Shown here: piece by piece, positions 1,133 to 64,000 of the stretch
Layout: each line of letters begins with the position of its first letter
Numbering within the stretch: the first letter of the stretch is position 1
From: Amphiscolops sp. MND2022
Taxonomy: Eukaryota
Direction: 5' to 3'
NCBI GenBank assembly: GCA_964187785.1
Contig: OZ076409.1
Span: forward strand, 73,038,001-73,102,000
Length of the DNA: 64,000 nucleotides
The notes under the pieces: generated by a model
Databases searched by the model: none
What the model was told of the DNA's origin: nothing
The model's input: the letters and a program-made list of their open reading frames with translations, nothing else
Translations under genes and position numbers: made by a program

Positions 1133-1237
1133 TCAACGCCCCATCCTTGCATCAACGCCCACCGTCCGTGGGCATGCCGAGGCATGCCCTTCGACGACGT
1201 ATACCAAGATATACATAAGCGCGGTAGCCGCTAGGTG
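1133..1237 (+). other. Conserved junction element (representative copy; 47 copies plus one degenerate copy)
   Basis: TCAACGCC (1133) and TCAACGCCC (1152) direct repeats, ACCGTCCGT, hairpin 1170-1189, TTCGACGACGT, a variable segment, then CTAGGTG at 1231-1237. It ends every unit whatever the subfamily. Confidence 0.95.
1170..1189 (+). other. Junction hairpin HP2, GGGCATGCC-GA-GGCATGCCC (representative)
   Basis: Perfect 9-bp inverted repeat, almost invariant. The outer G-C pair is replaced by A-T at 26076-26095 and 36050-36069. Confidence 0.93.
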
Positions 1238-1265
1238 CCGGGATTTCTATTCGATAAAGTATGTG

Positions 1266-1294
1266 GCGCGCCTTGGGTAGGGTCCCTTGCGCGC
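1266..1294 (+). other. Stem-loop HP3 carrying GGG(T/G)AGGG(T/C/G)CC about 40 bp downstream of the junction (representative)
   Basis: GCGCG...GGGTAGGGTCCC...CGCGC in this copy. The same core motif sits inside different closing stems in other subfamilies. Confidence 0.85.
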
Positions 1295-1702
1295 TCTTGG
1301 GTATGGTGTTCACCAGCTAGGAAACAGGGGTCGATTTTTCGGGATCTCCTAAACTAGCCACACGATTTGGCTGAAATTTGGCACACGTACCCCCCTCGGC
1401 ACGGTGAAGATGATTCCCTACTGACGTTTTGCTCGCTAAACATTTTTTGTTGACCAAAATAACGGTTTTTGGGGTAAAATTTTCAACTTTTTTTAAATTT
1501 CATCTTATATCTCGCCACGGGTTTACGCTAGCGCTTCCAAATCTTGCTGACGAAACCTTGCAAACTGTCTCAGGAATGCGGTGTGAAATTTTCAGCTCAA
1601 TCGGACTTAAACTCAGGGAGATATAGCGTTTTTCCGGAGCGGGGGGGTTTCATTTTTCTAACGGTCCAGCTTATCTTAGCCATTTTTTCGAAAATGTACT
1701 CG

Positions 1703-1811
1703 CCTAAAGACCTCCCCTGGCCGGTTTTATTCCCAGCAAAACCATTTGGCCCTAAATACGGAGTTTCAGCGTTCCAGCATTCCCGGGCGAAAAGTTGTGG
1801 GACTTAGAAAA
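1703..1811 (+). repeat. Most conserved internal block of main-family units (representative)
   Basis: CCTAAAG(A/G)CCTCCCCTGGCC...CCATTTGGCCCTAAATACGGAGTTTCAGCGTTC(C/T)AGCATTCCCGGGCGAAAAGTTGTGGGACTTAGAAAA is shared by subfamilies whose flanks differ strongly (for example near 446, 15848, 17112, 26666 and 44401). Confidence 0.9.
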
Positions 1812-2517
1812 TTTCAAAAATTTTCAAAATTTTTTTTTTCGGTTTTCCGCCCTCCCCCCCGAGGGGAAAAGACCCCCCAACCAGTAATTTGAGTGAATTC
1901 ATGTGGAAAGGCCATGTTTAGAGGAGAAAAATCCCGTTTAAATCGTCTTTTTATCTTTATTCAACGTTGACTTATGACGTTTTGAAGGTGATGTTTGGAG
2001 GTGTGAAGCACGTGAAAAGTAAACGTTATGAGTATTTATCTGATCTGAAAGCCATTGAGATGAACCTGTTTTGCTCAAAACGTAATTCATATCAGTCTGG
2101 TAGTCAATCAACACCCTTTGTTGTCATTTGACATCTTTTTTTGTTGATATAAGAAAAAATTTCGTGTATTTATTCATTTTTTTCTCATCAAATAACTTGA
2201 AACAGTTGAGTACATTCCATCCCCCCTTCACGGGGGAGATGAGAATGTACTCGCAGAAAGCCCCGAACTACGGCCCTTACCTTCCTGAGCTACGCAGTAT
2301 AAAGATTGCATATTGGTTCCGACATTTTGATAGAGTTATATCTTGGTAATCTGTCTGGGTATGCAGAAAAACCAGCACGTGCTTTTTTATACCAAGTTGC
2401 TCACAACGACATTTATTTTATATCAACGCCCCCATATTTATCAACGCCCCCCGTCCGTGGGCATGCCGAGGCATGCCCTTCGACGACGTATACCAAGATA
2501 TGTTCGAGCGCGTTAGC

Positions 2518-3789
2518 CTAGGTGCCGGGATTTTCTATTCGACAAGTTTGCGCGCCTTGGGGAGGGTCCCTTTGCGCGCTTTAAGATCCAGGTGTTTCCA
2601 ACTCCTAAACGGGCATGTGATTTCGACGATCTCCTAAACTAGCCATACGATTTGGCTGAAATTTGGCACACGTACCACCCTCGGCACGGTGAAGATGATT
2701 TCCTACTGACGTTTTTCCCGCTAAACATTTTTTGTTGTCCAAAATAACGGTTTTTGGTGGAAAATTTTTGATTTTTTTTAAATTTCATCTTATATCTCGC
2801 CACGGGTTTACGCTAGCGCTTCAAAACCTTGCTGACGAAAGTTTGCAAACTGTCTCAGGAATGCGGTGTGAAATTTTCAGCTCAATCGGACTCAAACTCG
2901 AGGAGATATAGCGTTTTTCCGGAGCGGGGGGGTTTCATTTTTCTAACGGTCCAGCTTATCTTTGCCATTTTTTCGAAAATGCACTCGCCTAAAGGCCTCC
3001 CCTGGCCGGTTTTATTCCCAGCAAAACCATTTGGCCCTAAATACGGAGTTTCAGCGTTCCAGCATTCCCGGGCGAAAAGTTGTGGGACTTAGAAAATTTC
3101 AAAAATTTTCAAAAAAAATTTTTTCCGTTATTTGGGCCCCCAAAGTGGGGGAAAAGACCCCCCAACCAGTAAAGCAAGTGAATGCATGTGGAAAGCCCTT
3201 AGTTAGATGAGAAAAATGGCGTTTAGAACGTCTTTTTATCTTGGCTCAACGTTGTCTTATGACGTTTTGAAGGTGACCGTTAGATACGGAAAATTGATGT
3301 TTTGAGTCTTTATCCCATCTGAAAGCCACTGAGATACAACATGTTTTGCTCAAAACGTATTTCATTGCAGTTTCGCTGTCCATTAACACCCTTTGGTGTC
3401 TTTTGACGTATTTTTCTTTTCTATAATAACATTTTTTCTGTGTATTTATTCATTTGTTTTTCATCAAATAACTTGAAACAGTTGAGTACATTCCATCTCC
3501 CTTCCCGGGGGAGATGAGAATGTACTCGCTAAAGGCCGCGAACTACGGTCTATATCTTCCCCAACACAAAAGAGATTGAAAATTGTTTCATTTTGTGGAA
3601 AAAATTCTTCTTTTTGTACACTGTGACTCGACAAAGTGAACGTTTCTTACCTATTTTGAAACTTCCCTCACCAAAAACCATCTCTAACGTCAGCGCCCCC
3701 CTACTTGCATCAACGCCCCCCGTCCGTGGGCATGCCGAGGCATGCCCTTCGACGACGTATACCAAGATATACCTGGAGCGCGGTAGCCG
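2518..3789 (+). mobile_element. Putative cassette, head type H2 (near-identical unit at 38694-39964; same head at 14070 and 51572)
   Basis: Head CCGGGATTTTCTATTCGACAAGTTTGCGCG...TTAAGATCCAGG; tail CTAAAGGCCGCGAACTACGGTC...CCTGGAGCGCGGTAGCCG. Confidence 0.6.
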
Positions 3790-5062
3790 CTAGGTGCCGG
3801 GATTTCCATTCGATAAGGAATTCTGCGCGTGTGGGTAGTGCCCCTGGCGCGCTCCTGTGTTTTCGGTTTTCCTACTCCTAAATAGACCCCCTGAATTCCG
3901 GGATCTCCTAAACTATCCATACGATTTGGCTGAAATTTGGCACACGTACCCCCCTCGGCACGGTGAAGATGATTTCCTACTGACGTTTTTCCCGCTAAAC
4001 ATTTTTTGTTGACCAAAATAACGGTTTTTGGGGTAAAATTTTGAACTTTTTTTAAATTTCATCTTATATCTCGCCACGGGTACACGCTAGCGCTTCCAAA
4101 CCTTGCTGACGAAAGTTTGCAAACTGTCTCAGGAATGCTGTGTGAAATTTTCAGCTCAATCGGACTTAAACTCGAGGAGATATAGCGTTTTCCCGGAGCG
4201 GGGGGGTTTCAATTTTCTAACGGTCCAGCTTATCTTTGCCATTTTTTCGAAAATGCACTCGCCTAAAGGCCTCCCCTGGCCGGTTTTATTCCCAACAAAA
4301 CCATTTGGCCCTAAATACGGAGTTTCAGCGTTCCAGCATTCCCGGGCGAAAAGTTGTGGGACTTAGAAAAGTTCAAAAATTTTCAAAAAAAATTTTTTCC
4401 GTTATTTGGGCCCTCAAAGTGGGGGAAAAGACCCCCCAACCAGTAAAGCAAGTGAATGCATGTGGAAAGCCCTTTTTTAGACGAGAAAAATGCCGTCTAG
4501 AACGTCTTTTTATCTTAACTTGACATTGACTTTTGTCGTTTTGAAGGTGACCGTTAGATACGGAAAATTGATGTTTTGAGTATTTATCCCATCTGAAAGC
4601 CATTGAGATACAACATGTTTTGCTCAAAACGTGTTTCATTGCAGTTTCGCTGTCCATTATCACCCTTTGGTGTCTTTTCACGTAATTTTCGTTTCTATAA
4701 TAACAATTTTTTTGTGTATTTATTCATTTTATTCTCATCAAATAACTTGAAACAGTTGAGTACATTCCATCTCCCTTCCCGGGGGAGATGAGAATGTACT
4801 CGCTAAAGGTCAGGAACTACGGTCTATATCTTCCACAACACAAATGGGATTGCAAATGGTTTCAGTTTGTCGCAGAAAACTTCTTTTTGCCCTCTGTGAC
4901 TCGACAAAATGAACGTTTCTTACTTACTTTGAAACTCAGCATACCACAACTCATCTCTAACGTCAGCGCCCCCCTACTTGCATCAACGCCCACCGTCCGT
5001 GGGCATGCCGAGGCATGCCCTTCGACGACGTATACCAAGATATACCTGGAGCGCGGTAGCCG
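3790..5062 (+). mobile_element. Putative cassette, head type H3 (head also at 6352, 12804, 19202, 37406)
   Basis: Head CCGGGATTTCCATTCGATAAGGAATTCTGCG. The tail is shared with unit 41252, which has a different head. Confidence 0.55.
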
Positions 5063-8000
5063 CTAGGTGCCGGTGTTTTTTTACACAATGGGGGAAGTTG
5101 CGCGGTTGGGGAGGGTCCCTGACGCGCTTCCGTGGTATCGGGTCTTTCAACCGATGAAAACGCGACAGAAAATCGGGATCTCGTAAACTAGCCATACGAT
5201 TTGGCTGAAATTTGGCACACGTACCCCCCTCGGCACGGTGAAGATGATTCCCTACTGACGTTTTTCCCGCTAAACATTTTTTGTTGACCAAAATAACGGT
5301 TTTTGGGGTAAAATTTTCAACTTTTTTTAAATTTCATCTTATATCTCGCCACGGGTGCACGCTAGCGCTTCCAAACCTTGCTGACGAAAGTTTGCAAACT
5401 GTCTCAGGAATGCTGTGTGAAATTTTCAGCTCAATCGGACTCGAACTCGAGGAGATATAGCGTTTTTCCGGAGCGGGGGGGTTTCATTTTTCTAACGGTC
5501 CAGCTTATCTTTGCCATTTTTTCGAAAATGCACTCGCCTAAAGGCCTCCCCTGGCCGGTTTTATTCCCAGCAAAACCATTTGGCCCTAAATACGGAGTTT
5601 CAGCGTTCCAGCATTCCCGGGCAAAAAGTTGTGGGACTTAGAAAATTTCAAAAATTTTCAAAAAAATTTTTTTCCGTTATTTGGGCCCCCAAAGTGGGGG
5701 AAAAGACCCCCCAACCAGTAAAGCAAGTGAATGCATGTGCAAAGCCCTTGTTTAGAGGAGAAAAATGCCGTTTAGAACGTCTTTTTATCTTGGCTCAACG
5801 TTGACTTATGACGTTTTGAAGGTGATGTTTGGAGGTGTAAAGCACGTGAATAGTAAACGTTATGAGTATTTATCTGATCTGAAAGCCATTGAGATGCAAT
5901 ATGGTTTGCTCAAAACGTAATTCTTGGCAGTTTGGCAATCAATCAACACCCTTTGTTGTCGTTTGACATACTTTTTTGTTGTTATAATAAAAAATTTTGT
6001 GTATTTATTCATTTTTTTCTCATCAAATAACTTGAAACAGTTGAGTACATTCCATCCCCCCTTCCGGGGGAGATGAGAATGTACTCGCAAAAAGCACCGA
6101 ACTACGGCCCTTACCTTCCCGAGCTACGCAGTTTAAGGATTACATATTGGTTCCGACATTTTCATAGAGTTAAATCTTGGTAATCTGTCTGGATATGCAG
6201 AAAAATCAGCACGTGCCTTTTAATACCAAGTTGCTCACAACGACAATTATTTTATATCAACGCCCCCATATTTATCAACGCCCCCCGTCCGTGGGCATGC
6301 CGAGGCATGCCCTTCGACGACGTGCACCAAGATATGCTATAACGCGTTAGCCTAGGTGCCGGGATTTCCATTCGATAAGGAATTCTGCGCGTGTGGGTAG
6401 GGCCCCTGGCGCGCTCCTGTGTTTTCGGTTTTCCTACTCCAAATTCACACCCCAGTTATCTCCGATCTCGTAAACTATCCATACGATTTGGCTGAAATTT
6501 GGCACACGTACCCCCCTCGGCACGGTGAAGATGATTTCCTACTGACGTTTTTCCCGCTAAACATTTTTTGTTGACCAAAATAACGGTTTTTGGGGTAAAA
6601 TTTTCAACTTTTTTTAAATTTTATCTTATATCTCGCCACGGGTACACGCTAGCGCTTCCAAACCTTGCTGACGAAAGTTTGCAAACTGTCTCAGGAATGC
6701 TGTGTGAAATTTTCAGCTCAATCGGACTTAAACTCGAGGAGATATAGCGTTTTTCCGGAGCGGGGGGGTTTCATTTTTCTAACGGTCCAGCTTATCTTTG
6801 CCATTTTTTCGAAAATGCACTCGCCTAAAGGCCTCCCCTGGCCGGTTTTATTCCCAGCAAAACCATTTGGCCCTAAATACGGAGTTTCAGCGTTCCAGCA
6901 TTCCCGGGCGAAAAGTTGTGGGACTTAGAAAATTTCAAAAATTTTCAAAAATTTTTTTTCCGTTATTTGGGCCCCCAAAGTGGGGGAAAAGACCCCCCAA
7001 CCAGTAAAGCAAGTGAATGCATGTGCAAAGCCCTTGTTTAGAGGAGAAAAATGCCGTTTAGAACGTCTTTTTATCTTGGCTCAACGTTGACTTATGACGT
7101 TTTGAAGGTGATGTTTGGAGGTGTAAATCACGTGAATAGTAAACGTGAATAGAAAGAGTATTTATCTGATCTGAAAGCCATTGAGATGCAATATGGTTTG
7201 CTCAAAACGTAATTCATGGCAGTTTGGCAATCAATCAACACCCTTTGTTGTCGTTTGACATACTTTTTTGTTGTTATAATAAAAATTTTGTGTATTTGTT
7301 CATTTTTTTCTCATCAAATAACTTGAAACAGTTGAGTACATTCCATCCCCCCTTCCGGGGGAGATGAGAATGTACTCGCAAAAAGCAGCGAATTACGGCC
7401 CTTACCTTCCCGAGCTACGCAGTATAAGGATTACATATTGGTTCCGACATTTTCATAGAGTTAAATCTTGGTAATCTGTCTGGATATGCAGAAAAATCAG
7501 CACGTGCCTTTTAATACCAAGTTGCTCACAACGACAATTATTTTATATCAACGCCCCCATATTTATCAACGCCCCCCGTCCGTGGGCATGCCGAGGCATG
7601 CCCTTCGACGACGTATACCAAGATATACATCGAGCGCGTTAGCCTAGGTGCCGGGATTTCTATTCGATAAAGTATGTGGCGCGCCTTGGGTAGGGTCCCT
7701 TGCGCGCTCTTGGGTATGGTGTTCACCAGCTAGGAAACAGGGGTCGATTTTTCGGGATCTCCTAAACTAGCCACACGATTTGGCTGAAATTTGGCACACG
7801 TACTCCCCTCGGCATGGTGAAGATGATTCCCTACTAGCGTTTTGCTCGCAAAATTTTTTTTGTTGTCCAAAATAACGGTTTTTGGGGGAAAATTTTGAAC
7901 TTTTTTTAAATTTCATCTTATATCTCGCCACGGGTTTACGCTAGCGCTTCAAAACCCTGCTAAAGAAAGCTTGCAAACTGTCTCAGGAATGCGGTGTGAA

Positions 8001-8932
8001 ATTTTCAGCTCAATCGGACTTAAACTCAGGGAGATATAGCGTTTTTCCGGAGCGGGGGGGTTTCATTTTTCTAACGGTCCAGCTTATCTTAGCCATTTTT
8101 TCGAAAATGTACTCGCCTAAAGACCTCCCCTGGCCGGTTTTATTCCCAGCAAAACCATTTGGCCCTAAATACGGAGTTTCAGCGTTCCAGCATTCCCGGG
8201 CGAAAAGTTGTGGGACTTAGAAAATTTCAAAAATTTTCAAAAATTTTTTTTTCGGTTTTCCGCCCTCCCCCCCGAGGGGAAAAGACCCCCCAACCAGTAA
8301 TTTGAGTGAATTCATGTGGAAAGGCCATGTTTAGAGGAGAAAAATGCCGTTTAGAACGTCTTTTTATCTTGGCTCAACGTTGACTTATGACGTTTTGAAG
8401 GTGATGTTTGGAGGTGTGAAGCACGTGAAAAGTAAACGTTATGAGTATTTATCTGATCTGAAAGCCATTGAGATGAAACCTGTTTTGCTCAAAACGTAAT
8501 TCATATCAGTTTGGTAGTCAATCAACACCCTTTGTTGTCATTTGACATCTTTTTTTTGTTGATATAAGAAAAAATTTCGTGTATTTATTCATTTTTTTCC
8601 CATCAAATAACTTGAAACAGTTGAGTACATTCCATCCCCCCTTCACGGGGGAGATGAGAATGTACTCGCAAAAAGCCCCAAACTACGGCCCTTACCTTCC
8701 TGAGCTACGCAGTATAAAGATTGCATATTGGTTCCGACATTTTGATAGAGTTATATCTTGGTAATCTGTCTGGGTATGCAGAAAAACCAGCACGTGCTTT
8801 TTTATACCAAGTTGCTCACAACGACATTTATTTTATATCAACGCCCCCATATTTATCAACGCCCCCCGTCCGTGGGCATGCCGAGGCATGCCCTTCGACG
8901 ACGTATACCAAGATATGTTCGAGCGCGTTAGC

Positions 8933-10225
8933 CTAGGTGCCGGTGTTTTTTTACACAATGGGGAAAGTTGCGCGGTTGGGGAGGGTCCCTGACGCGCTCC
9001 CGGGATTTCGGATTTTTTAACCTTTACGTACCCATCAAAAATTTTGGGATCTCGAAAACTAGCCGTACGATTTGGCTGAAATTTGGCACACGTACCCCCC
9101 TCGGCACGGTGAAGATGATTTCCTACTGACGTTTTTCCCGCTAAACATTTTTTGTTGACCAAAATAACGGTTTTTGGGGTAAAATTTTCAACTTTTTTTA
9201 AATTTCATCTTATATCTCGCCACGGGTACACGCTAGCGCTTCCAAACCTTGCTGACGAAAGTTTGCAAACTGTCTCAGGAATGCTGTGTGAAATTTTTAG
9301 CTCAATCGGACTTAAACTCGAGGAGATATAGCGTTTTTCCGGAGCGGGGGGGTTTCATTTTTCTAACGGTCCAGCTTATCTTTGCCATTTTTTCGAAAAT
9401 GCACTCGCCTAAAGGCCTCCCCTGGCCGGTTTTATTCCCAGCAAAACCATTTGGCCCTAAATACGGAGTTTCAGCGTTCCAGCATTCCCGGGCGAAAAGT
9501 TGTGGGACTTAGAAAATTTCAAAAATTTTCAAAAAAATTTTTTTCCGTTATTTGGGCCCCCAAAGTGGGGGAAAAGACCCCCCAACCAGTAAAGCAAGTG
9601 AATGCATGTGCAAAGCCCTTGTCTGAACGAGAAAAATGCCGTTTAGAACGTCTTTTTATCTTGGCTCAACGTTGACTTATGACGTTTTGAAGGTGATGTT
9701 TGGAGGTGTAAAGCACGTGAATAGTAAACGTTATGAGTATTTATCTGATCTGAAAGCCATTGAGATACAATATGGTTTGCTCAAAACGTATTTCATTGCA
9801 GTTTGGCAATCAATACAACACCCTTTGTTGTCGTTTGACATACTTTTTTGTTGTTCTAATAAAAAATTTTGTGTATTTATTCATTTTTTTCTCATCAAAT
9901 AACTTGGAACAGTTGAGTACATTCCATCCCCCCTTCCGGGGGAGATGAGAATGTACTCGCAAAAAGCACCGAACTACGGCCCTTACCTTCCCGAGCTACG
10001 CAGTATAAGGATTACATATTGGTTCCGACATTTTCATAGAGTTATATCTTGATAATCTGTCTGGATATGCCGAAAAATCAGCACGTGCCTTTTAATACCA
10101 AGTTGCTCACAACGACAATTATTTTATATCAACGCCCCCATATTTATCAACGCCCCCCGTCCGTGGGCATGCCGAGGCATGCCCTTCGACGACTCGCACC
10201 AAAATATGCGTTAGCGCGGTAGCCG
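8933..10225 (+). mobile_element. Putative cassette, head type H4 (near-identical unit at 59277-60570; related heads at 5063, 10226, 21780, 29601, 54143, 55435, 57987)
   Basis: Head CCGGTGTTTTTTTACACAATGGGG. Private variants (GAAATTTTTAGCTC, CTTGTCTGAACGAG, CAATACAACACCC, GACTCGCACCAAAATATGCGTTAGC) are shared with the copy 50 kb away. Confidence 0.65.
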
Positions 10226-13200
10226 CTAGGTGCCGGTGTTTTTTTACACAATGGGGGAAGTTGCGCGTGTGGGGAGGGTCCCTGACGCGCTCCCGGGATT
10301 TCGGATTTTTTAACCTTTACGTACCCATCAAAAATTTTGGGATCTCGAAAACTAGCCGTACGATTTGGCTGAAATTTGGCACACGTACCCCCCTCGGCAC
10401 GGTGAAGATGATTCCCTACTGACGTTTTTCCCGCTAAACATTTTTTGTTGACCAAAATAACGGTTTTTGGGGTAAAATTTTCAACTTTTTTTAAATTTCA
10501 TCTTATATCTCGCCACGGGTGCACGCTAGCGCTTCCAAACCTTGCTGACGAAAGTTTGCAAACTGTCTCAGGAATGCTGTGTGAAATTTTCAGCTCAATC
10601 GGACTTAAACTCGAGGAGATATAGCGTTTTTCCGGAGCGGGGGGGTTTCATTTTTCTAACGGTCCAGCTTATCTTTGCCATTTTTTCGGAAATGCACTCG
10701 CCTAAAGGCCTCCCCTGGCCGGTTTTATTCCCAGCAAAACCATTTGGCCCTAAATACGGAGTTTCAGCGTTCCAGCATTCCCGGGCGAAAAGTTGTGGGA
10801 CTTAGAAAAGTTCAAAAATTTTCAAAAAAATTTTTTTCCGTTATTTGGGCCCCCAAAGTGGGGGAAAAGACCCCCCAACCAGTAAAGCAAGTGAATGCAT
10901 GTGCAAAGCCCTTGTTTAGAGGAGAAAAATGCCGTTTAGAACGTCTTTTTATCTTGGCTCAACGTTGACTTATGACGTTTTGAAGGTGATGTTTGGAGGT
11001 GTAAAGCACGTGAATAGTAAACGTTATGAGTATTTATCTGATCTGAAAGCCATTGAGATGCAATATGGTTTGCTCAAAACGTAATTCATGGCAGTTTGGC
11101 AATCAATCAACACCCTTTGTTGTCGTTTGACATACTTTTTTGTGGTTATAATAAAAAATTTTGTGTATTTATTCATTTTTTTCTCATCGAATAACTTGAA
11201 ACAGTTGAGTACATTCCATCCCCCCTTCCGGGGGAGATGAGAATGTACTCGCAAAAAGCACCGAACTACAGCCCTTACCTTCCCGAGCTACGCAGTATAA
11301 GGATTACATATTGGTTCCGACATTTTCATAGAGTTAAATCTTGGTAATCTGTCTGGATATGCAGAAAAACCAGCACGTGCTTTTTTATACCAAGTTGCTC
11401 ACAACGACAATTATTTTATATCAACGCCCCCATATTTATCAACGCCCCCCGTCCGTGGGCATGCCGAGGCATGCCCTTCGACGACGTATACCAAGATATG
11501 TTCGAGCGCGTTAGCCTAGGTGCCCGGATTTCTATTCGATAAAGTATGTGGCGCGTGTGGGTAGGGTCCCTGGCGCGCTCTTGGGTATGGTGTTCACCAG
11601 CTAGGAAATAGGGGTCGATTTTTCGGGATCTCCTAAACTAGCCACACGATTTGGCTGAAATTTGGCACACGTACCCCCCTCGGCACGGTGAAGATGATTT
11701 CCTACTGACGTTTTTCCCGCAAAATTTTTTTTGTTGTCCAAAATAACGGTTTTTGGGGTAAAATTTTGAATTTTTTTTTAAATTTCATCTTATATCTCGC
11801 CACGGGTTTACGCTAGCGCTTCAAAACCCTGCTAAAGAAAGCTTGCAAACTGTCTCAGGAATGCGGTGTGAAATTTTCAGCTCCATCGGACTCAAACTCA
11901 GGGAGATATAGCGTTTTTCCGGAGCGGGGGGGTTTCATTTTTCTAACGGTCCAGCTTATCTTAGTCATTTTTTCGAAAATGTAATCGCCTAAAGGCCTCC
12001 CCTGGCCGGTTTTATTCCCAGCAAAACCATTTGGCCCTAAATACGGAGTTTCAGCGTTCTAGCATTCCCGGGCGAAAAGTTGTGGGACTTAGAAAATTTC
12101 AAAAATTTTCAAAAAATTTTTTTTCCGTTTTCCGCCCTCCCCCCCTAGGGGAAAAGACCCCCCAACCAGTAATTTGAGTGAATTCATGTGGAAAGGCCAT
12201 GTTTAGAGGAGAAAAATTTCGTTTAAATCGTCTTTTTATCTTTATTCAACGTTGACTTATGACGTTTTGAAGGTGATGTTTGGAGGTGTGAAGCACGTGA
12301 AAAGTAAACGTTATGAGTATTTATCTGATCTGAAAGCCATTGAGATGCAACCTGTTTTGCTCAAAACGTAATTCATATCAGTTTGGTAGTCAATCAACAC
12401 CCTTTGTTGTCATTTGACATCTTTTTTTGTTGATATAAGAAAAAATTTCGTGTATTTATTCATTTTTTTCTCATCAAATAACTTGAAACAGTTGAGTACA
12501 TTCCATCCCCCCTTCACGGGGGAGATGAGAATGTACTCGCAAAAAGCTCCGAACTACGGCCCTTACCTTCCTGAGCTACGCAGTATAAAGATTGCATATT
12601 GGTTCCGACATTTTGATAGAGTTATATCTTGGTAATCTGTCTGGGTATGCAGAAAAACCAGCACGTGCTTTTTTATACCAAGTTGCTCACAACGACATTT
12701 ATTTTATATCAACGCCCCCATATTTATCAACGCCCCCCGTCCGTGGGCATGCCGAGGCATGCCCTTCGACGACGTATACCAAAATATGTTCGAGCGCGTT
12801 AGCCTAGGTGCCGGGATTTCCATTCGATAAGGAATTCTGCGCGTGTGGGTAGGGCCCCTGGCGCGCTCCTGTGTTTTGGGTTTTCCTACTCTAAATTCAC
12901 ACATCAGTTATCTCGGATCTCGAAAACTAGCCACACGATTTGGCTGAAATTTGGCACACAGCTCCGTTGGAACATTGTAAGAACAAATCCCTACTGACGT
13001 TTTGCCCGCTAAACATTTTTTGTTGGTCAAAAATGCGATTTTCCGACAAAATTTTTGACTTTTTTTTCTTTTTCAACTCATATCTCGTCACAGGGTCACG
13101 CTAGCGCTTCGCAACCTATGATCCTTTTTTGTAGGGCATTGCATGTAGAACACGTATGCCAAATTTGGTGGCGATCGGACTTAAACTCAGGGAGATATAA

Positions 13201-26000: not shown

Positions 26001-26139
26001 CCTCTGACTCAACTATAGCATGTACGTAATGAAACCAATAACACCTTCAACTGTTAATCAACGCCCACCGTCCGTAGGCATGCCGAGGCATGCCTTTCGA
26101 CGACGCGCGCCAAAAACAATATAACGGCGCCACCCGCTT
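23069..26139 (+). mobile_element. Long divergent cassette (3071 bp) with about 2 kb of AT-rich sequence unique in the window
   Basis: Bounded by junctions. Has HP3 (23102-23133), the GCTGAAATTTGGCATG box and CCGGAA repeats (23772-23819). About 24000-26040 has no counterpart elsewhere in the window. It ends in a variant junction (CTGGGTG). Confidence 0.6.
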
Positions 26140-52900: not shown

Positions 52901-55900
52901 GGTAGGGTCCCTGGCGCGCTCTTGGGTATGGTGTTCACCAGCTAGGAAATAGGGGTCGATTTTTCGGGATCTCCTAAACTAGCCACACGATTTGGCTGAA
53001 ATTTGGCACACGTACTCCCCTCGGCACGGTGAAGATGATTTCCTACTGACGTTTTGCTCGCAAAATTTTTTTTGTTGTCCAAAATAACGGTTTTTGGGGT
53101 AAAATTTTGAATTTTTTTTAAATTTTATCTTATATCTCGCCACGGGTTTACGCTAGCGCTTCAAAACCCTGCTAAAGAAAGCTTGCAAACTGTCTCAGGA
53201 ATGCGGTGTGAAATTTTCAGCTCAATCGGACTCAAACTCGGGGAGATATAGCGTTTTTCCGGAGCGGGGGGGTTTCATTTTTCTAACGGTCCAGCTTATC
53301 TTTGCCATTTTTTCGAAAATGTACTCGCCTAAAGGCCTCCCCTGGCCGGTTTTACTCCCAGCAAAACCATTTGGCCCTAAATACGGAGTTTCAGCGTTCT
53401 AGCATTCCCGGGCGAAAAGTTGTGGGACTTAGAAAAGTTCAAAAATTTTCAAAAATTTTTTTTTCCGTTTTCCGCCCTCCCCCCTAGGGGAAAAGACCCC
53501 CCAACCAGTAATTTGAGTGAATTCATGTGGAAAGGCCATGTTTAGAGGAGAAAAATACCGTTTAGATCGTCTTTTTATTTTAACCTGTCGTTGACTTATG
53601 ACGTTTTGAAGGTGATGTTTGGAGGTGTGAAGCACGTGAAAAGTAAACGTTATGAGTATTTATCTGATCTGAAAGCCATTGAGATGCAACCTGTTTTGCT
53701 CAAAACGTAATTCATATCAGTTTGGTAGTCAATCAACACCCTTTGTTGTCATTTGACATCTTTTTTTGTTGATATAAGAAAAAATTTCGTGTATTTATTC
53801 ATTTTTTTCTCATCAAATAACTTGAAACAGTTGAGTACATTCCATCCCCCCTTCACGGGGGAGATGAGAATGTACTCGCAAAAAGCCCCGAACTACGGCC
53901 CTTACCTTCCTGAGCTACACAGTATAAAGATTGCATATTGGTTCCGACATTTTGATAGAGTTATATCTTGGTAATCTGTCTGGGTATGCAGAAAAACCAG
54001 CACGTGCTTTTTTATACCAAGTTGCTCACAACGACATTTATTTTATATCAACGCCCCCATATTTATCAACGCCCCCCGTCCGTGGGCATGCCGAGGCATG
54101 CCCTTCGACGACGTATACCAAGATATGTTCGAGCGCGTTAGCCTAGGTGCCGGTGTCTTTTTACACAATGGGGGAAGTTGCGCGGTTGGGGAGGGTCCCT
54201 GACGCGCTTCCGTGAGATCAGGTTTTTCAACTAGTGAAATCGACAAAGAAAATTGGGATCTCGTAAACTAGCCATACGATTTGGCTGAAATTTGGCACAC
54301 GTACCCCCCTCGGCACGGTGAAGATGATTCCCTACTGACGTTTTTCCCGCTAAACATTTTTTGTTGACCAAAATAACGGTTTTTGGGGTAAAATTTTCAA
54401 CTTTTTTTAAATTTCATCTTATATCTCGCCACGGGTGCACGCTAGCGCTTCCAAACCTTGCTGACGAAAGTTTGCAAACTGTCTCAGGAATGCTGTGTGA
54501 AAATTTCAGCTCAATCGGACTCAAACTCGGGGAGATATAGCGTTTTTCCGGAGCGGGGGGGTTTCATTTTTCTAACGGTCCAGCTTATCTTTGCCATTTT
54601 TTCGAAAATGCACTCGCCTAAAGGCCTCCCCTGGCCGGTTTTATTCCCAGCAAAACCATTTGGCCCTAAATACGGAGTTTCAGCGTTCCAGCATTTCCGG
54701 GCGAAAAGTTGTGGGACTTAGAAAATTTCAAAAACTTTCAAAAAATTTTTTTTCCGTTATTTGGGCCCCCAAAGTGGGGGAAAAGACCCCCCAGCCAGTA
54801 AAGCAAGTGAATGCATGTGCAAAGCCCTTGTTTGGACGAGAAAAATGCCGTTTAGAACGTCTTTTTATCTTTGCTCAACGTTGACTTATGATGTTTTGAA
54901 GGTGATGTTTGGAGGTGTAAAGCAAGTGAATAGTAAACGTTATGAGTATTTATCTGATCTGAAAGCCATTGAGATGCAATATGGTTTGCTCAAAACGTAA
55001 TTCATTGCAGTTTGGCAATCAATCAACACCCTTTGTTGTCGTTTGACATACTTTTTTGTTGTTATAATAAAAAATTTTGTGTATTTATTCATTTTTATCT
55101 CATCAAATAACTTGGAACAGTTGAGTACATTCCACCCCCCCCTTCCGGGGGAGATGAGAATGTACTCGCAAAAAGCACCGAACTACGGCCCTTACCTTCC
55201 CGAGCTACGCAGTATAAGGATTACATATTGGTTTCGACATTTTCATAGAGTTATATCTTGGTAATCTGTCTGGATATGCCGAAAAATCAGCACGTGCCTT
55301 TTAATACCAAGTTGCTCACAACGACAATTATTTTATATCAACGCCCCCATATTTATCAACGCCCCCCGTCCGTGGGCATGCCGAGGCATGCCCTTCGACG
55401 ACCCGCACCAAAATATGCGTTAGCGCGGTAGCTGCTAGGTGCCGGTGTATTTTTACACAATGGGGGATGTTGCGCGTGTGGGGAGGGTCCCTGACGCGCT
55501 TCCGTGGTTTCGGGTCTTCTAACCTATGATAGCGTGACACCTGACTTCGATCTCGTAAACTAGCCGTACGATTTGGCTGAAATTTGGCACACGTACCCCC
55601 CTCGGCACGGTGAAGATGATTTCCTACTGACGTTTTTCCCGCTAAACATTTTTTGTTGACCAAAATAACGGTTTTTGGGGTAAAATTTTCAACTTTTTTT
55701 AAATTTCATCTTATATCTCGCCACGGGTACACGCTAGCGCTTCCAAACCTTTCTGACGAAAGTTTGCAAACTGTCTCAGGAATGCTGTGTGAAATTTTCA
55801 GCTCAATCGGACTTAAACTCGAGGAGATATAGCGTTTTTCCGGAGCGGGGGGGTTTCATTTTTCTAACGGTCCAGCTTATCTTTGCCATTTTTTCGGAAA

Positions 55901-58900
55901 TGCACTCGCCTAAAGGCCTCCCCTGGCCGGTTTTATTCCCAGCAAAACCATTTGGCCCTAAATACGGAGTTTCAGCGTTCCAGCATTCCTGGGCGAAAAG
56001 TTGTGGGACTTAGAAAAGTTCAAAAAATTTCAAAAATTTTTTTTCCGTTATTTGGGCCCCCAAAGTGGGGGAAAAGACCCCCCAACCAGTAAAGCAAGTG
56101 AATGCATGTGCAAAGCCCTTGTTTAGAGGAGAAAAATGCCGTTTAGAACGTCTTTTTATCTTGGCTCAACGTTGACTTATGACGTTTTGAAGGTGATGTT
56201 TGGATGTGTAAAGCACGTGAATAGTAAACGTTATGAGTATTTATCTGATCTGAAAGCCATTGAGATGCAATATGGTTTGCTCAAAACGTAATTCATGGCA
56301 GTTTGGCAATCAATCAACACCCGTTGTCGTTTGACATACTTTTTTGTTGTTATAAAAAAAATTTTGTGTAATTATTCATTTTTTTCTCATCAAATAACTT
56401 GAAACAGTTGAGTACATTCCATCCCCCCTTCCGGGGGAGATGAGAATGTACTCGCAAAAAGCTCCGAATTACGGCCCTTACCTTCCCGAGCTACGCAGTA
56501 TAAGGATTGCATATTGGTTCCGACATTTTCATAGAGTTAAATCTTGGTAATCTGTCTGGATATGCAGAAAAATCAGCACGTGCCTTTTAATACCAAGTTG
56601 CTTACAACGACAATTATTTTATATCAACGCCCCCATATTTATCAACGCCCCCCGTCCGTGGGCATGCCGAGGCATGCCCTTCGACGACGTATACCAAGAT
56701 ATGCGTTAACGCGTTAGCCTAGGTGCCGGGATTTCTATTCGTTCGAGTATGTGGCGCGTGTGGGTAGGGCCCCTGGCGCGCTCTTGTGTTTCGGGTTTTC
56801 CTACTCCTAAACCGCGTTCAGATTTTCGGGATCTCGTAAACTAGCCATACGATTTGGCTGAAATTTGGCACACGTACCCCCCTCGGCACGGTGAAGATGA
56901 TTCCCTACTGACGTTTTGCCCGCTAAACATTTTTTGTTGACCAAAATAACGGTTTTTGGTGGAAATTTTTCAACTTTTTTTAAAATTCATCTTATATCTC
57001 GCCCCAGGTTTACGCTAGCGCTTCAAAACCTTGCTGACGAAAGTTTGCAAACTGTCTCAGGAATGCGGTGTGAAATTTTCAGCTCAATCGGACTTAAACT
57101 CGAGGAGATATAGCGTTTTTCCGGAGCGGGGGGGTTTCATTTTTCTAACGGTCCAGCGTATCTTTGCCATTTTTTCGAAAATGCACTCGCCTAAAGGCCT
57201 CCCCTGGCCGGTTTTACTCCCAAAAAAACCATTTGGCCCTAAATACGGGGTTTCAGCGTTCTAGCATTTTCGGGCGAAAAGTTGTGGGACTTAGAATATT
57301 TCAAAAATTTTCAAAAAAATTTTTTTCCGTTATTTGGGCCCCCAATGTGGGGGAAAGGACCCCCCAACCAGTATTTTGAGTGAATGCATGTGCAAAGCGC
57401 TTGTTTAGAGGAGAAAAATGTCGTTTAGAACGTCTTTTTATCTTTACTCAACGTTGACTTTTGTCGTTTTGAAGGTGACCGTTAGATATGGAAAATTGAT
57501 GTTTTGAGTATTTATCTCATCTGAAAGCCATTGAGATACAACATGTTTTGCTCAAAACGTGTTTCATTGCAGTATCGCTGTCCATTAACACCCTTTGGTG
57601 ACTTTTGACATATTTTTTTTATATATAATATCACTTTTTTGTGCATTTTTTCGTTTTTTTCTCATCTAATATCTTGAAACAGTTGAGTACATTCCATCTC
57701 CCTTCCCGGGGGAGATGAGAATGTACTCGCTAAAGGCCATGAACTACGGCCTATACCTTCCCGAGCTACGCACTACAATTATTGCATATGCATGCAGACC
57801 TTTTAATACATTTTTATCTTTATAGATTGACTGGACAAACTGAAAACTCTGTCCTGATTATACAAAGTTACCTCACAACGACACATGTTTACGTCAACGC
57901 TCCATACTTTACATCAACGCCCACCGTCCGTGGGCATGCCGAGGCATGCCCTTCGACGACGTATAGCCACTCAAACGCGGTAGCCGCTAGGTGCCGGTGT
58001 TTTTTTACACAATGGGGGAAGTTGCGCGGTTGGGGAGGGTCCCTGACGCGCTTCCGTGGTATCGGGTCTTTCAACCGATGAAAACGACATAAAAAATTGG
58101 GATCTCGTAAACTAGCCATACGATTTGGCTGAAATTTGGCACACGTACCCCCCTCGGCACGGTGAAGATGATTCCCTACTGACGTTTTGCTCGCTAAACA
58201 TTTTTTGTTGACCAAAATAACGGTTTTTGGGGTAAAATTTTCAACTTTTTTTAAATTTCATCTTATATCTCGCCACGGGTACACGCTAGCGCTTCCAAAC
58301 CTTGCTGACGAAAGTTTGCAAACTGTCTCAGGAATGCTGTGTGAAATTTTCAGCTCAATCGGACTCAAACTCGAGGAGATATAGCGTTTTTCCGGAGCGG
58401 GGGGGTTTCATTTTTCTAACGGTCCAGCATATCTTTGCCATTTTTTCGAAAATGTACTCGCCTAAAGGCCTCCCCTGGCCGGTTTTATTCCCAGCAAAAC
58501 CATTTGGCCCTAAATACGGAGTTTCAGCGTTCCAGCATTTCCGGGCGAAAAGTTGTGGGACTTAGAAAATTTCAAAAATTTTCAAAAATTTTTTTTTCGT
58601 CATTTGGGCCCCCAAAGTGGGGGAAAAGACCCCCCAACCAGTAAAGCAAGTGAATGCATGTGCAAAGCCCTTGTTTAGGGGAGAAAAATGCCGTTTAGAA
58701 CGTCTTTTTATCTTGGCTCAACGTTGACTTATGACGTTTTGAAGGTGATGTTTGGAGGTGTGAAGCACGTGAATAGTAAACGTTATGAGTATTTATCTGA
58801 TCCGAAAGCCATTGAGATGCAATATGGTTTGCTCAAAACGTAATTCATTGCAGTTTGGCAATCAATCAACACCCTTTGTTGTCGTTTGACATATTTTTTT

Positions 58901-61900
58901 GTTGTTATAATAAAAAATTTTGTGTATTTATTCATTTTTTTCTCATCAAATAACTTGAAACAGTTGAGTACATTCCATCGCCCCCTTCCGGGGGAGATGA
59001 GAATGTACTCGCAAAAAGCACCGAACTACGGCCCTTACCTTCCCGAGCTACGCAGTATAAGGATTACATATTGGTTCCGACATTTTCATAGAGTTATATC
59101 TTGGTAATCTGTCTGGATATGCAGAAAAATCAGCACGTGCCTTTTAATACCAAGTTGCTTACAACGACAATTATTTTATATCAACGCCCCCATATTTGTC
59201 AACGCCCCCCGTCCGAGGGCATGCCGAGGCATGCCCTTCGACGACGTGTACCAAGATATACCTTGAGCGCGTTAGCCTAGGTGCCGGTGTTTTTTTACAC
59301 AATGGGGAAAGTTGCGCGGTTGGGGAGGGTCCCTGACGCGCTCCCGGGATTTCGGATTTTTTAACCTTTACGTACCCATCAAAAATTTTGGGATCTCGAA
59401 AACTAGCCGTACGATTTGGCTGAAATTTGGCACACGTACCCCCCTCGGCACGGTGAAGATGATTTCCTACTGACGTTTTTCCCGCTAAACATTTTTTGTT
59501 GACCAAAATAACGGTTTTTGGGGTAAAATTTTCAACTTTTTTTAAATTTCATCTTATATCTCGCCACGGGTACACGCTAGCGCTTCCAAACCTTGCTGAC
59601 GAAAGTTTGCAAACTGTCTCAGGAATGCTGTGTGAAATTTTTAGCTCAATCGGACTTAAACTCGAGGAGATATAGCGTTTTTCCGGAGCGGGGGGGTTTC
59701 ATTTTTCTAACGGTCCAGCTTATCTTTGCCATTTTTTCGAAAATGCACTCGCCTAAAGGCCTCCCCTGGCCGGTTTTATTCCCAGCAAAACCATTTGGCC
59801 CTAAATACGGAGTTTCAGCGTTCCAGCATTCCCGGGCGAAAAGTTGTGGGACTTAGAAAATTTCAAAAATTTTCAAAAAAATTTTTTTCCGTTATTTGGG
59901 CCCCCAAAGTGGGGGAAAAGACCCCCCAACCAGTAAAGCAAGTGAATGCATGTGCAAAGCCCTTGTCTGAACGAGAAAAATGCCGTTTAGAACGTCTTTT
60001 TATCTTGGCTCAACGTTGACTTATGACGTTTTGAAGGTGATGTTTGGAGGTGTAAAGCACGTGAATAGTAAACGTTATGAGTATTTATCTGATCTGAAAG
60101 CCATTGAGATACAATATGGTTTGCTCAAAACGTATTTCATTGCAGTTTGGCAATCAATACAACACCCTTTGTTGTCGTTTGACATACTTTTTTGTTGTTC
60201 TAATAAAAAATTTTGTGTATTTATTCATTTTTTTCTCATCAAATAACTTGGAACAGTTGAGTACATTCCATCCCCCCCTTCCGGGGGAGATGAGAATGTA
60301 CTCGCAAAAAGCACCGAACTACGGCCCTTACCTTCCCGAGCTACGCAGTATAAGGATTACATATTGGTTCCGACATTTTCATAGAGTTATATCTTGATAA
60401 TCTGTCTGGATATGCCGAAAAATCAGCACGTGCCTTTTAATACCAAGTTGCTCACAACGACAATTATTTTATATCAACGCCCCCATATTTATCAACGCCC
60501 CCCGTCCGTGGGCATGCCGAGGCATGCCCTTCGACGACTCGCACCAAAATATGCGTTAGCGCGGTAGCCGCTAGGTGCCGGGATTTCTATTCGATAAAGT
60601 ATTTTGCGCGGTTGGGTAGGGCCCCGTGAGCGCGCCAGGGGATTGTGTTAGAACAACCGGAAATTCGGCATACGATTTTGGCGATTTTCTAAACTATCCA
60701 TACGATTTGGCTCAAATTTGGCATACGGGTTCCTGAGACAGATATAAGAACTAATTCCTACTGGCGTTTTGCCCGGAAAATTTTTTTTGTTGCCCAAAAT
60801 TGAAATTTTCGGCAAAAAAATGCGATTTTTTTTGAAAAATTTTTTTTGAGAGGCCATATCTTTTTTCAGGGTGCCCGGAGCGGGACGCGTTAAACTGATT
60901 ATAAACTCTACGGTTCATGGGCTTTACGGAGAACCTAAGCTCGTTTCGCTCGGACAAATAGTCTTGGAGATATAACGGGATTTTTTGGGAATTTTTTGAA
61001 AATTTTTCTAACGGTCCAGCTTATCTTTGCCATTTTTTCAAAAATGCACTCGCCTAAAGGCCTCCCCTGGCCGGTTTTATTCCCAGCAAAACCATTTGGC
61101 CCTAAATACGGAGTTTCAGCGTTCCAGCATTCCCGGGCGAAAAGTTGTGGGACTTAGAAAAATTTCAAAATTTTTCAAAAAATTTTTTTCCGTTTTCCGC
61201 CCTCCCCCCCGAGGGGAAAAGACCCCCCAACCAGTAATTTGAGTGAATTCATGTGGAAAGCCCATGTTTAGAGGAGAAAAATGCCGTTTAGATCGTCTTT
61301 TTATTTTAACCTGTCGTTGACTTATGTTGTTTTGAAGGTGATGTTTGGATGTGTGAAGCATGTGAAAAGGTAATTTATTGTGTCTTTAGCTCTTCTAAAA
61401 GCCATTGAGATACAAGGTGTAGCACTCAGAACGTGTTTAATTCTAAATTAGCAATGCATCAACACTTTTTGTGTCTTTGGACTCTGTTAAAAAATTTTTT
61501 CCGACTAAAATCAAAAATTATTTATAATTATTCACATTTTTTTCTGATCTCATGACTCGAAACAGTTGAGTACATTCCATCTCCCTTCCAGGGGGAGATG
61601 AGAATGTACTCTCTAAAGACCAGGTACTACAGTACTTACCTTACCCGAGCAACGCCCCATAAAAATTGCGTTTTGATTATTCTATTTTGACATAATTCTA
61701 TCTTTGTAATTTGACTGGAAATGAAGAAAATCCGCACGTGCTCTTTTATATCAAGTATCTTAACAACGCCATCTCTTTAACGTCAACGCCCCATAGTTCA
61801 CATCAACGCCCACCGTCCGTGGGCATGCCGAGGCATGCCCTTCGACGACGTATGCCAAAGATATTCCCGAGCGCGTTAGCCTAGGTGCCGGGATTTCTAT

Positions 61901-63167
61901 TCGATAAAGTATGTGGCGCGCCTTGGGTAGGGTCCCTTGCGCGCTCTTGGGTATGGTGTTCACCAGCTAGGAAACAGGGGTCGATTTTTCGGGATCTCCT
62001 AAACTAGCCACACGATTTGGCTGAAATTTGGCACACGTACCCCCCTCGGCACGGTGAAGATGATTTCCTACTGACGTTTTTCCCGCAAAATTTTTTTTGT
62101 TGTCCAAAATAACGGTTTTTGGGGTAAAATTTTGAATTTTTTTTAAATTTTATCTTATATCTCGCCACCGGTTTACGCTAGCGCTTCAAAACCCTGCTAA
62201 AGAAAGCTCGCAAACTGTCTCAGGAATGCGGTGTGAAATTTTCAGCTCAATCGGACTCAAACTCAGGGAGATATAGCGTTTTTCCGGAGCGGGGGGGTTT
62301 CATTTTTCTAACGGTCCAGCTTATCTTAGCCATTTTTTCGAAAATGTACTCGCCTAAAGACCTCCCCTGGCCGGTTTTATTCCCAGCAAAACCATTTGGC
62401 CCTAAATACGGAGTTTCAGCGTTCCAGCATTCCCGGGCGAAAAGTTGTGGGACTTAGAAAATTTCAAAAATTTTCAAAATTTTTTTTTTCCGTTTTCCGC
62501 CCTCCCCCCCTAGGGGAAAAGACCCCCCAACCAGTAATTTGAGTGATTTCATGTGGAAAGGCCATGTTTAGAGGAGAAAATGCCGTTTAGAACGTCTTTT
62601 TATCTTGGCTCAACGTTGACTTATGACGTTTTGAAGGTGATGTTTGGAGGTGTAAAGCACGTGAATAGTAAACGTTATGAGTATTCATCTGATCTGAAAG
62701 CCATTGAGATGCAACCTGTTTTGCTCAAAACGTAATTCATATCCGTTTGGTAGTCAATCAACACCCTTTGTTGTCATTTGACATCTTTTTTTGTTGATAT
62801 AAGAAAAAATTTCGTGTACTTATTCATTTTTTTCTCATCAAATAACTTGAAACAGTTGAGTACATTCCATCCCCCCTTCACGGGGGAGATGAGAATGTAC
62901 TCGCAAAAAGCCCCAAACTACGGCCCTTACCTTCCTGAGCTACGCAGTATAAAGATTGCATATTGGTTCCGACATTTTGATAGAGTTATATCTTGGTAAT
63001 CTGTCTGGGTATGCAGAAAAACCAGCACGTGCTTTTTTATACCAAGTTGCTCACAACGACATTTATTTTATATCAACGCCCCCATATTTATCAACGCCCC
63101 CCGTCCGTGGGCATGCCGAGGCATGCCCTTCGACGACGTATACCAAAATATGTTCGAGCGCGTTAGC

Positions 63168-64000
63168 CTAGGTGCGGGGGGGTAACCCCAACAAATATAT
63201 TGGAGGATTCGGGTAGGGTCCTGAATCCGATTTTAACTCTAATAGCTATCGATAGGAAATCTTGCAAAAATTTCGGGATCTCGTGATCTAACCATAGGAT
63301 TTTAAAGTTGGAGCGGCCCCCACCAGATTTTCCGAAAATTAGCGCCCCCCACCGGGTTCCAGCGTGATTGAAATATTTTGTCGGGGTACACGGGCGACCG
63401 TTAGGGGTCATTTTAGGGGTAAAATTTATAAAAGTTAGCATAACTTTTTTCCTGTTGGTTTAAAACTTTAGGACCCTGCTAAAAGTTTCTTGACCATGTT
63501 GCAGGGGCCCCGGAGGTCCAAACCAAATTTTTCTATCTTGAAGCTATCTCCAAGTACCCCCCCGCTCAAACCGTTATTTTTCCGGAAACGCAGGTTTTTG
63601 ACCCGGAAGGAGTCGTCTGAGCGCGGGGTCGTTAGGTGATGTATTGGGGACGGCCTTGAGACGAAGTGGGGGACAAGTAGTTTGCCAACCTCAATTTACC
63701 CCCCGGACGGGAAATGACCGTTATATGAGCGTGAAAAATGCCCCCCTCCACGTTTTACCGCTATTTCCGGTGTGAAGGAGTGGGAGTAGCGCGTCGGGTG
63801 TTATATAACAAAAGTAGGTTTAGACAAGGACCTATCGGAAACATGTAGTTTGGGACCCCCTGGACCAACCCGTTAGCGGGCAATGGGGCTTCCGCCTCCT
63901 TTTTTTAGTGCTAAAACCGTAAAATGGGCATTGAGGGGTAAATATCTCGTGAACGCGTGGAGCAATCGTGTCCATCACTACTACAAGGTTTCATACCCAT
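63168..64000 (+). mobile_element. 3'-truncated divergent cassette related to the 3071-bp unit
   Basis: 63763-63830 (ATTTCCGGTGTGAAGGAGTGGG...AAAAGTAGGTTTAGACAAGG) matches 23533-23600 (ATTTCCGATGTGAAGGAGTGGG...AAAAGTAGGTTTAGACAAAG). HP3 at 63205-63228. Confidence 0.65.

Follow-up and report, generated by a model that had tools for sequence, protein, structure and literature searches.

A head-to-tail array in Amphiscolops read as Helitron-like elements that probably target each other's ends

How do dozens of divergent, non-coding DNA units come to stand head to tail in shuffled order, each joined to the next at the same short sequence? This question is raised by a 64,000-nt stretch of the genome of Amphiscolops sp. 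MND2022 (GCA_964187785.1, contig OZ076409.1, positions 73,038,001 to 73,102,000 of the forward strand), hereafter the window. An earlier note on these letters had proposed an integron-like array of excisable cassettes sharing a 7-bp core, CTAGGTG, by analogy with integrons and Crypton-type tyrosine-recombinase elements. On our reading, to which we assign a probability of roughly 0.7, the units belong, as non-autonomous elements, to a divergent Helitron-like lineage with an HUH RepHel transposase, and they target the ends of resident elements. The whole window (1..64000, plus strand) would then be a portion of a head-to-tail array of such elements at about C1:70.5-76.5 Mb. We judge the feature to be real, a self-stacking Helitron-like lineage whose anatomy the earlier note had right and whose enzyme class it had wrong.

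Array architecture

The motif CTAGGTG occurs 46 times on the plus strand of the window, on which all window features given below lie, and not once on the minus strand. Each copy joins the 3' end of one element to the 5' start of the next (CTAG^GTG), the cut being placed from the solo and nested copies described below. From the first junction (1231..1237) onwards, copies are spaced 1266-1397 bp apart, except for two gaps of 4343 and 2189 bp. The larger gap contains a variant junction, CTGG^GTG (26140..26146), which had been overlooked in the earlier note and which follows a 3.07-kb family unit with a terminal CTGG (23073..26143). We counted 47 joints and 46 complete units, spanning 1235 to 63171; the head of a 1.97-kb family unit (63172..64000) runs beyond the window end. 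Standard units are 1.27-1.31 kb long and 54-100% identical to one another, and the remainder measure 1.39, 2.19, 3.07 and 1.97 kb. The longest open reading frame (ORF) in the window is 152 aa from stop to stop, an Rfam scan of the window gave zero matches, and Tandem Repeats Finder (period limit 500) reported nothing relevant.

The order of the units appears shuffled, and the observations from which this had been concluded proved correct. The units at 8937..10229 and 59281..60574 are 99.9% identical, and those at 2522 and 38698, and at 16649 and 50307, are each 98.3% identical; in every case the neighbours differ. One tail, GCGCCACAGGGCGCAAACTTGTCCG, precedes three distinct heads (16645/50303, 19202 and 45182/47746). 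Units that barely align, at 30878 and 42525 (~42-44% identity to the rest) and at 23073, are joined via the common junction.

None of 44 near-identical unit pairs (12-mer sharing of at least 0.75) in 94 kb, comprising the window and 30 kb of flank, had flanking pairs that reached 0.75. A higher-order repeat is therefore not seen, and we rejected it as the main cause of the order. The claim that satellite-like order is missing holds in this respect, but neighbours are slightly more alike than chance predicts (p=0.013). Head type is linked to the tail type of the same unit (mutual information 2.65 versus 1.86±0.09 in shuffled data; 0 of 5000 shuffles, p<0.0002), and tail type is unlinked to the next head (1.96 versus 1.91±0.09; p=0.29). 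Tail class is determined mostly by the final 35 nt, a variable stretch 3' of the longest conserved block; since these nucleotides are linked to their own unit, the switch of partners is located in the junction, and crossing-over in the conserved tail block was rejected as the main shuffler. That the switch falls at the core, as had been stated, is correct to this extent, but internal mosaics occur too. In a crude window test, 16 of 52 standard-length units had at least one 100-column window that fitted another unit at least 10 points above the overall best match; in one mosaic unit (47750..49032), the 5' half resembles unit 43914 and the 3' half unit 26144. Across 152 junctions examined, we distinguished 40 tail types, 43 head types and 123 tail-head combinations, which argues for many independent joining events.

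Exact copies of a 32-nt tail motif number 4,057 in the 1.07-Gb genome and are spread across many arrays. Element DNA was present on the plus strand in 11 of 11 slices from C1:70.8-76.2 Mb and in 0 of 9 slices outside 70.4-76.6 Mb, so that the window is part of a polarised array of ~6 Mb, within which a single minus-strand tail was found (C1:72.44 Mb). Most large contigs carry smaller arrays, and those of 8-15 units located on other chromosome arms are equally end-joined; two small arrays begin after CTAG and CTGG. At C1:38048150-38075620, two large non-coding array units (~12.9 and 14.5 kb) have the usual ends and ORFs of at most 135 aa, and DNA resembling them recurs often in the 6-Mb array (in 4 of 11 slices). 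Array orientation reverses over a 200-N scaffold gap at C1:23977196-23979688, probably an assembly join.

Element ends and target site

Copies inserted elsewhere define the element. At C8:25.69 Mb, two whole units lie inside a resident unit, at CTTG^GT and, 13 nt on, at CTGG^GT, and the paralogous site at C1:74.37 Mb holds two tandem units. Both residents resume after the inserts with nothing lost or duplicated, and once the empty sites are reconstructed, they align to the window at 2306 with 0 mismatches and at 22857 with 1. Among 40 dispersed ends, 12 heads were recognised in unique flank, five after CTTG, two after CTAG, two after CTCG and three after other sequences. C occupies position -4 in 31 of 33 heads selected solely by a preceding TTG (33 of 38 matches fetched), and T stands two bases past the terminal CTAG in 39 of 43 ends. 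The solo copies, nested copies and empty sites show elements of the form 5'-GTG...CTAG-3' that insert without a target-site duplication (TSD) at CT(A/T/G/C)G^(A/T/G)T, hereafter CTNG^DT, with the cut after CTAG or one base earlier. The supposed 7-bp core thus reduces to one point (CTAG^GTG or one base left) in a degenerate hexamer target. One 1.26-kb unit with a terminal CTTG sits at CTTG^GT in the coding region of a Gypsy-like long terminal repeat retrotransposon (L042, C1:37447615-37448870). The flank of a solo 1.98-kb unit (L143) looked by eye like a tRNA-derived repeat, yet ARAGORN predicted no tRNA there and 0 genes in 16 loci, and tRNA was rejected as a target.

This target is matched perfectly by the junction CTAG^GT, and resident junctions appear strongly favoured. 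Among 4,787 window-type tails (CTAG), the next bases are GTG in 4,665, A/C/T in 67, GT(A/C/T) in 47 and G(A/C/G) in 8; ~97% therefore directly adjoin the head of another element, of any family. This agrees with the proposal that the units are discrete mobile elements joining at the junction of a resident. The first 30 tails continued by A, C or T comprise 25 that enter other DNA and 5 in-array joints. For a second tail type (T2), only two continuations were counted, GTG (178) and A/C/T (27), and families with other tails, for example those ending CACGT-CTAG, use the identical joint. All 47 window joints are located at unit ends and none at internal target hexamers, which remain empty at 53 CTTG-DT and 2 CTAG-DT sites on the plus strand and at 107 sites on the minus strand. 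Genome-wide, target hexamers number ~3 million, a crude figure extrapolated from 31 kb.

These counts bear on a different explanation, in which only the hexamer is recognised, the elements are attracted to a heterochromatic or centromere-like chromatin domain, internally disrupted units are not recopied, and host recombination grows the arrays. Copies are indeed concentrated in one ~6-Mb block, internal insertions do exist, and centromeric and subtelomeric Helitron clusters have been reported (excerpts of PMC13404089 and PMC11934779). However, 55 plus-strand and 107 minus-strand hexamers in the window stand empty beside 47 of 47 joints at ends, strand polarity is near-uniform, and the small arrays on other arms are end-joined likewise, which makes this explanation quite unlikely. 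That the assembly concatenated similar reads at a common motif is very improbable. The region is highly repetitive, and the only public sequencing run found to contain the stretch did so at a small share, with thin coverage (no RNA run is listed), but the contig is chromosome-scale, the nested insertions are clean with exact empty sites, and solo copies in unique flank follow the identical rule. Moreover, one run-X1 contig (a single contig, depth 2, possibly not independent) joins a tail to a head that is non-adjacent in the window.

Alternatively, the elements may be Helitron-like, with arrays that arose by rolling-circle read-through, as concatemers and multi-unit blocks later scrambled, without a real preference for resident ends. 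Termination-bypass tandem Helitron arrays are known and have been proposed for plants and bats (PMC4067079 and PMC5876387, in excerpt). The tandem pair within one nested site is 99.4% identical, there are local single-family runs, and T2 tails cluster together at C1:73.46-73.88 Mb. Read-through or local copying explains the tandem pair, the same-family runs and the similarity of neighbours as well as end-targeting does. Against it as the general process stand the 44 near-identical pairs with no near-identical neighbours, the failure of tail type to predict the next head and the 123 combinations among 152 junctions; scrambling by crossing-over in the tail block is excluded as the main shuffler by the linkage of the last 35 nt to their own unit. 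We consider this explanation unlikely, although read-through dimers, of which the tandem pair would be an example, probably occur too. An internal hot spot ~170 nt from the tail was used three times, and at other internal joints a head is 30-90 nt away; together with the T2 clustering, we regard these as supporting hints for the targeting of ends.

Beyond these runs and similarities, several observations weigh against our reading. Some 26 of the 40 dispersed ends lacked a recognisable head in the 5 kb upstream, while 2 others lay in arrays or were ambiguous. The headless copies are either truncated or belong to a head family missing from the comparison library, which suggests that 5'-truncated copies are common; in this sample, picked by tail, initiation could have either polarity. 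At two of the three remaining nested loci (L282 and L284; CTTG|head), the resident sequence fails to continue in the DNA retrieved, and the third locus is complex. The exact partner family of each unit type is tentative, and transposition, binding, the circles and excision, like the targeting mechanism, are proposed from sequence. Separately, many dispersed copies (L135-L174) retain only their last 50-1700 nt with a clean CTAG^(A/T)T end, a pattern that may stem from 5' truncation, decay or tail-initiated copying.

Coding members and their relatives

The note had looked to longer units elsewhere as the source of the enzyme, with HUH/Rep proteins among the candidates, and RepHel elements with the same junction are indeed present in the same arrays. 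A 13.7-kb unit-bounded element in an array at C1:24.0 Mb contains a 2,377-aa frame (P0001) with Pfam matches to Helitron_like_N (40.3 bits) and PIF1 (42.8 bits), both above cut-off, and a C-terminal GIY-YIG match slightly below it (21.1 versus 22.6 bits, E 4e-4). The Rep region of P0001 has 108 matches genome-wide, dozens of them within frames >2,200 aa; of the 108, 30 map to C1:70.5-76.5 Mb, every one of them on the plus strand, as in the window. Coding elements are 12-14 kb long where both ends were seen. Ten were fetched (Rep identity 32-87% to the query), and in all ten CTAG|GTG and array units follow downstream; the three with heads in the fetched DNA start with GTG after CTAG, CTAG and CTCG. 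HUH and YxxxY motifs are present in 10 of 10, one of which has its helicase half in a separate frame, and a simple GIY-YIG pattern matched 5 of 10. Judged by their sequences, coding members encode an intact HUH Rep with two tyrosines (Y2) and a PIF1 helicase, often with a C-terminal GIY-YIG domain. Window units have the 5' 760 nt (71-87% identity) and the last 60-75 nt in common with a coding element at C1:71.02 Mb. Two coding elements on separate chromosomes are 97.5% identical, and their downstream neighbours differ. Further clusters of coding elements, in mixed orientation, were noticed at C2:102.1-103.9 Mb and C3:2.5-3.6 Mb, one of them at the extreme end of a chromosome-scale contig.

A second ORF is present in 9 of 11 aligned coding elements. 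Its predicted fold (predicted local distance difference test score 72.6) has RPA/CST OB-fold proteins as best structural matches (E 4e-5, low template-modelling score) and POT1/MEIOB/CDC24 as Atlas neighbours; on this model, the product is an RPA-like OB-fold protein. Against the PDB, the GIY-YIG region gave weak SLX1 matches at most (best E 0.027). In the P0001 clade, a third ORF of 222 aa (L033:7362-8027, minus strand) lies between the RepHel and RPA-like genes; it has zero Pfam matches, and by eye it may be SGNH-hydrolase-like.

With RepHel genes inside same-ended units, it becomes very improbable that a tyrosine or serine recombinase moves the units as integron- or Crypton-like cassettes via a 7-bp core. 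The precise junctions and shuffled order would suit such cassettes, but solo copies have just CTNG^.T in common with the junction, and no unit-linked tyrosine recombinase was found: a Phage_integrase search, which did not extend to serine recombinases, gave four weak matches at loci unrelated to the units. At C3:2.083 Mb (L052-L054), a 1055-aa frame has three weak tyrosine-recombinase repeats ~1 kb apart and is unrelated to the array.

Membership of the Helitron-like superfamily is indicated by the fusion of a two-tyrosine HUH Rep to PIF1 in same-ended elements and by insertion without a TSD. Placement within it was compared with the criteria for Helitron-like element (HLE) groups 1 and 2 in excerpts of PMC11417382 and PMC4067079. 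As in HLE1 and Helraiser, the array elements combine an HUH Y2 Rep with PIF1, have a downstream RPA-like gene, insert without a TSD, leave non-autonomous derivatives with common ends, and end in 3' CTAG behind a subterminal palindrome, in accordance with the HLE1 pattern of CTRR after a hairpin; some families end CTGG or CTTG. They differ in that they begin with GTG rather than TC, insert at CTNG^DT rather than A^T, have the palindrome ~43 nt from the end and carry the GIY-YIG fusion. Their Rep motif 2 reads EFQxxxxNL(Q/P)HxH and lacks the HLE1 signature, given as RGLP/RGLT or RG(S/L)P. Helraiser shows no local hopping (PMC4778049, excerpt), whereas the array elements pile onto each other.

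Likeness to HLE2 comprises a hairpin near the 5' end, W-x-R before motif 2 and an OTU domain in some homologs. Chlamydomonas Helitron2, an HLE2, inserts after the tetranucleotide TTTT (PMC3627910), and one moss HLE2 family captured GIY-YIG (PMC11417382), both according to excerpts. The array elements differ in having neither a T^T or TTTT^T target nor asymmetric terminal inverted repeats (longest head-tail inverted match, mean 5.7 nt within units versus 5.6 nt to other units), and neither DUF6570 nor APE endonuclease occurs in P0001 or in any of 19 homologs. The fused PIF1 also sets them apart from Replitrons, defined by a Rep without helicase (PMC10288648, excerpt).

In a quick tree, 51 ingroup rows stand opposite 11 outgroup Reps across a branch with 97% support in the Shimodaira–Hasegawa-like approximate likelihood ratio test. 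The ingroup rows were selected for their resemblance to the query (40 hand-chosen from 126 aligned rows, 10 array elements and 1 further row from the same genome), and the outgroup came from the Amphiscolops genome only and was labelled by motif, so that the thin outgroup and the ingroup selection limit the test. The Rep branches separately from 3 HLE1-like Reps of this genome and lies outside 7 of 8 HLE2-like Reps, one long-branch row being a weak sister; Repbase and HELIANO references were left out of this tree. Canonical HLE1-like and several HLE2-like Helitrons coexist in the Amphiscolops genome (L208-L219).

A profile-free search returned 429 representatives at E<=0.001, with sources including the hagfish Myxine glutinosa and the tunicate Styela clava, and GIY-YIG was found in 13 of 19 long homologs scanned. 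Further relatives occur in metagenomes, and none of the 41 loci concerned resembles the window's units. In the metagenomic relatives (L240-L280), Rep-PIF1-GIY-YIG is surrounded by several additional ORFs located on both strands, and one relative (L244) has a 134-bp inverted repeat directly past the ORF and at the contig end. The lineage may correspond to the 'unclassified HLEs' of HELIANO (19 genomes). Full-text searching, the scope of which excluded subscription papers, Repbase and Dfam, found no description of it.

In behaviour, the nearest systems by analogy are IS91 and a Paramecium clade that targets telomeric repeats. IS91 inserts in one orientation, without a TSD, at the tetranucleotide CTTG, which resembles its own terminal CTCG (PMC13181058, excerpt). 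By contrast, the array elements are eukaryotic, helicase-fused and 12-14 kb long, and their resident-end preference and giant arrays are unreported for IS91 in that excerpt. The Paramecium Helitrons, compared by description only, form a clade outside HLE1 and HLE2 with oriented, sequence-biased insertion, and end in CCAA, which is present in their telomeric-repeat target; this target is a host repeat rather than an element junction, and the excerpt does not mention GIY-YIG (PMC13085455). The flanks of the array elements are not telomeric repeats.

Head-to-tail or clustered Helitron arrays also occur in plants, bats, Hydractinia (megabases in subtelomeres) and Meloidogyne, and unrelated Helitrons are sometimes directly adjacent in bat and maize (PMC4067079, excerpt). 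In the parts of this literature that we compared (PMC12001565, PMC13404089, PMC11934779, PMC5148889, PMC3627910, PMC10288648 and bioRxiv 10.64898/2026.09.17.752431), the arrays are concatemers or single-subfamily expansions, whereas at least 40 tail and 43 head types meet here at base-exact joints; sequence-exact self-junction targeting by mixed families is not described there.

A possible route to self-stacking arrays

The anatomy of the units suggests how a resident end might be recognised. The type example (1235..2521) is a 1.28-kb element whose first 760 nt are 71% identical to the head of the coding element at C1:71.02 Mb. Near its start, a stem-loop surrounds a GGG(T/G)AGGG-CCC motif (1266..1294; 45 of 46 units) with family-variable stems; its folding is weak (z -1.4), as it is in individual heads (z +0.2 to -2.2 in 7 heads). 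A conserved central block (1742..1763; 42 of 46 units) is present too in the 5' regions of coding elements. Towards the 3' end follow a strong subterminal hairpin (2208..2252; z -7.1; 42 of 46 units) and internal CTTG^GT and CTGG^GT sites (2342..2358), whose paralogs elsewhere hold the clean nested units. Two TCAACGCC direct repeats (2423..2450; 37 of 46 units) are candidate Rep-binding iterons, and a palindrome, GGGCATGC-CGAG-GCATGCCC (2459..2478; 46 of 46 units), precedes the 3' end by ~43 nt. The unit ends in the terminal CTAG (2518..2521). Among other units, one of 2.19 kb (27416..29604) has a degenerate duplicate tail near 29320-29375, and that at 30878..32274 represents a divergent 1.39-kb family with a second copy type at 42525-43913.

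That HUH Helitrons move by copy-and-paste is well established. HUH nicking proceeds with a 5'-phosphotyrosine, and end-joined circles, which in Helitrons carry CTAG^TC joints, are able to integrate (PMC4778049 and PMC5876387, in excerpt). By analogy, our best reading is IS91-like tetranucleotide targeting with a strong preference for resident ends. Rep would nick after CTAG at the head junction, the helicase would peel off one strand, and a second nick at the tail CTAG would close a circle with the joint CTAG^GTG, which would then be strand-transferred, as in IS91, into a CTNG^DT target. Resident ends recreate CT(A/T)G^GT beside presumed Rep-binding subterminal sequences and would therefore be by far the best targets, favoured by transposase bound to the TCAACGCC repeats, palindrome and hairpins. 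Single units, and sometimes dimers, of many families could thus be slotted in one by one, building a polarised, shuffled megabase array. Mosaic families might stem from template switching or recombination within conserved blocks, and the weakly SLX1-like GIY-YIG domain may, at a guess, process a branched intermediate.

We lean slightly towards a broader proposal, in which the array elements represent an undescribed, widespread lineage (Rep-PIF1-GIY-YIG with an RPA-like gene) and the transposase, as a site-specific single-strand integrase, works on the junction of the element's own ends. Since each insertion rebuilds two targets, dozens of families could use one self-made landing site. If true, intact young copies would allow direct tests, in a eukaryotic system, of how 1-14 kb of cargo is inserted in one orientation and without a TSD at a defined att-like site, and integron-like, polarised multi-megabase arrays would have been built by dozens of families. 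For genome engineers, the appeal would lie in a eukaryotic HUH enzyme whose junction target is defined, and dozens of intact, nearly identical coding copies make the chemistry testable. Such ends would escape tools that seek TC...CTRR or terminal inverted repeats.

Textbook Helitrons are near-random inserters at A^T or T^T. The array elements would represent a separate Rep lineage that combines IS91-like tetranucleotide targeting with ~97% end-to-end stacking, against ~3 million hexamers available in the genome. They would also illustrate a route from transposon to megabase satellite-like array without host recombination, one that accounts for the shuffled, mixed-family order. The pattern points to a safe-haven strategy that confines insertions to other elements.

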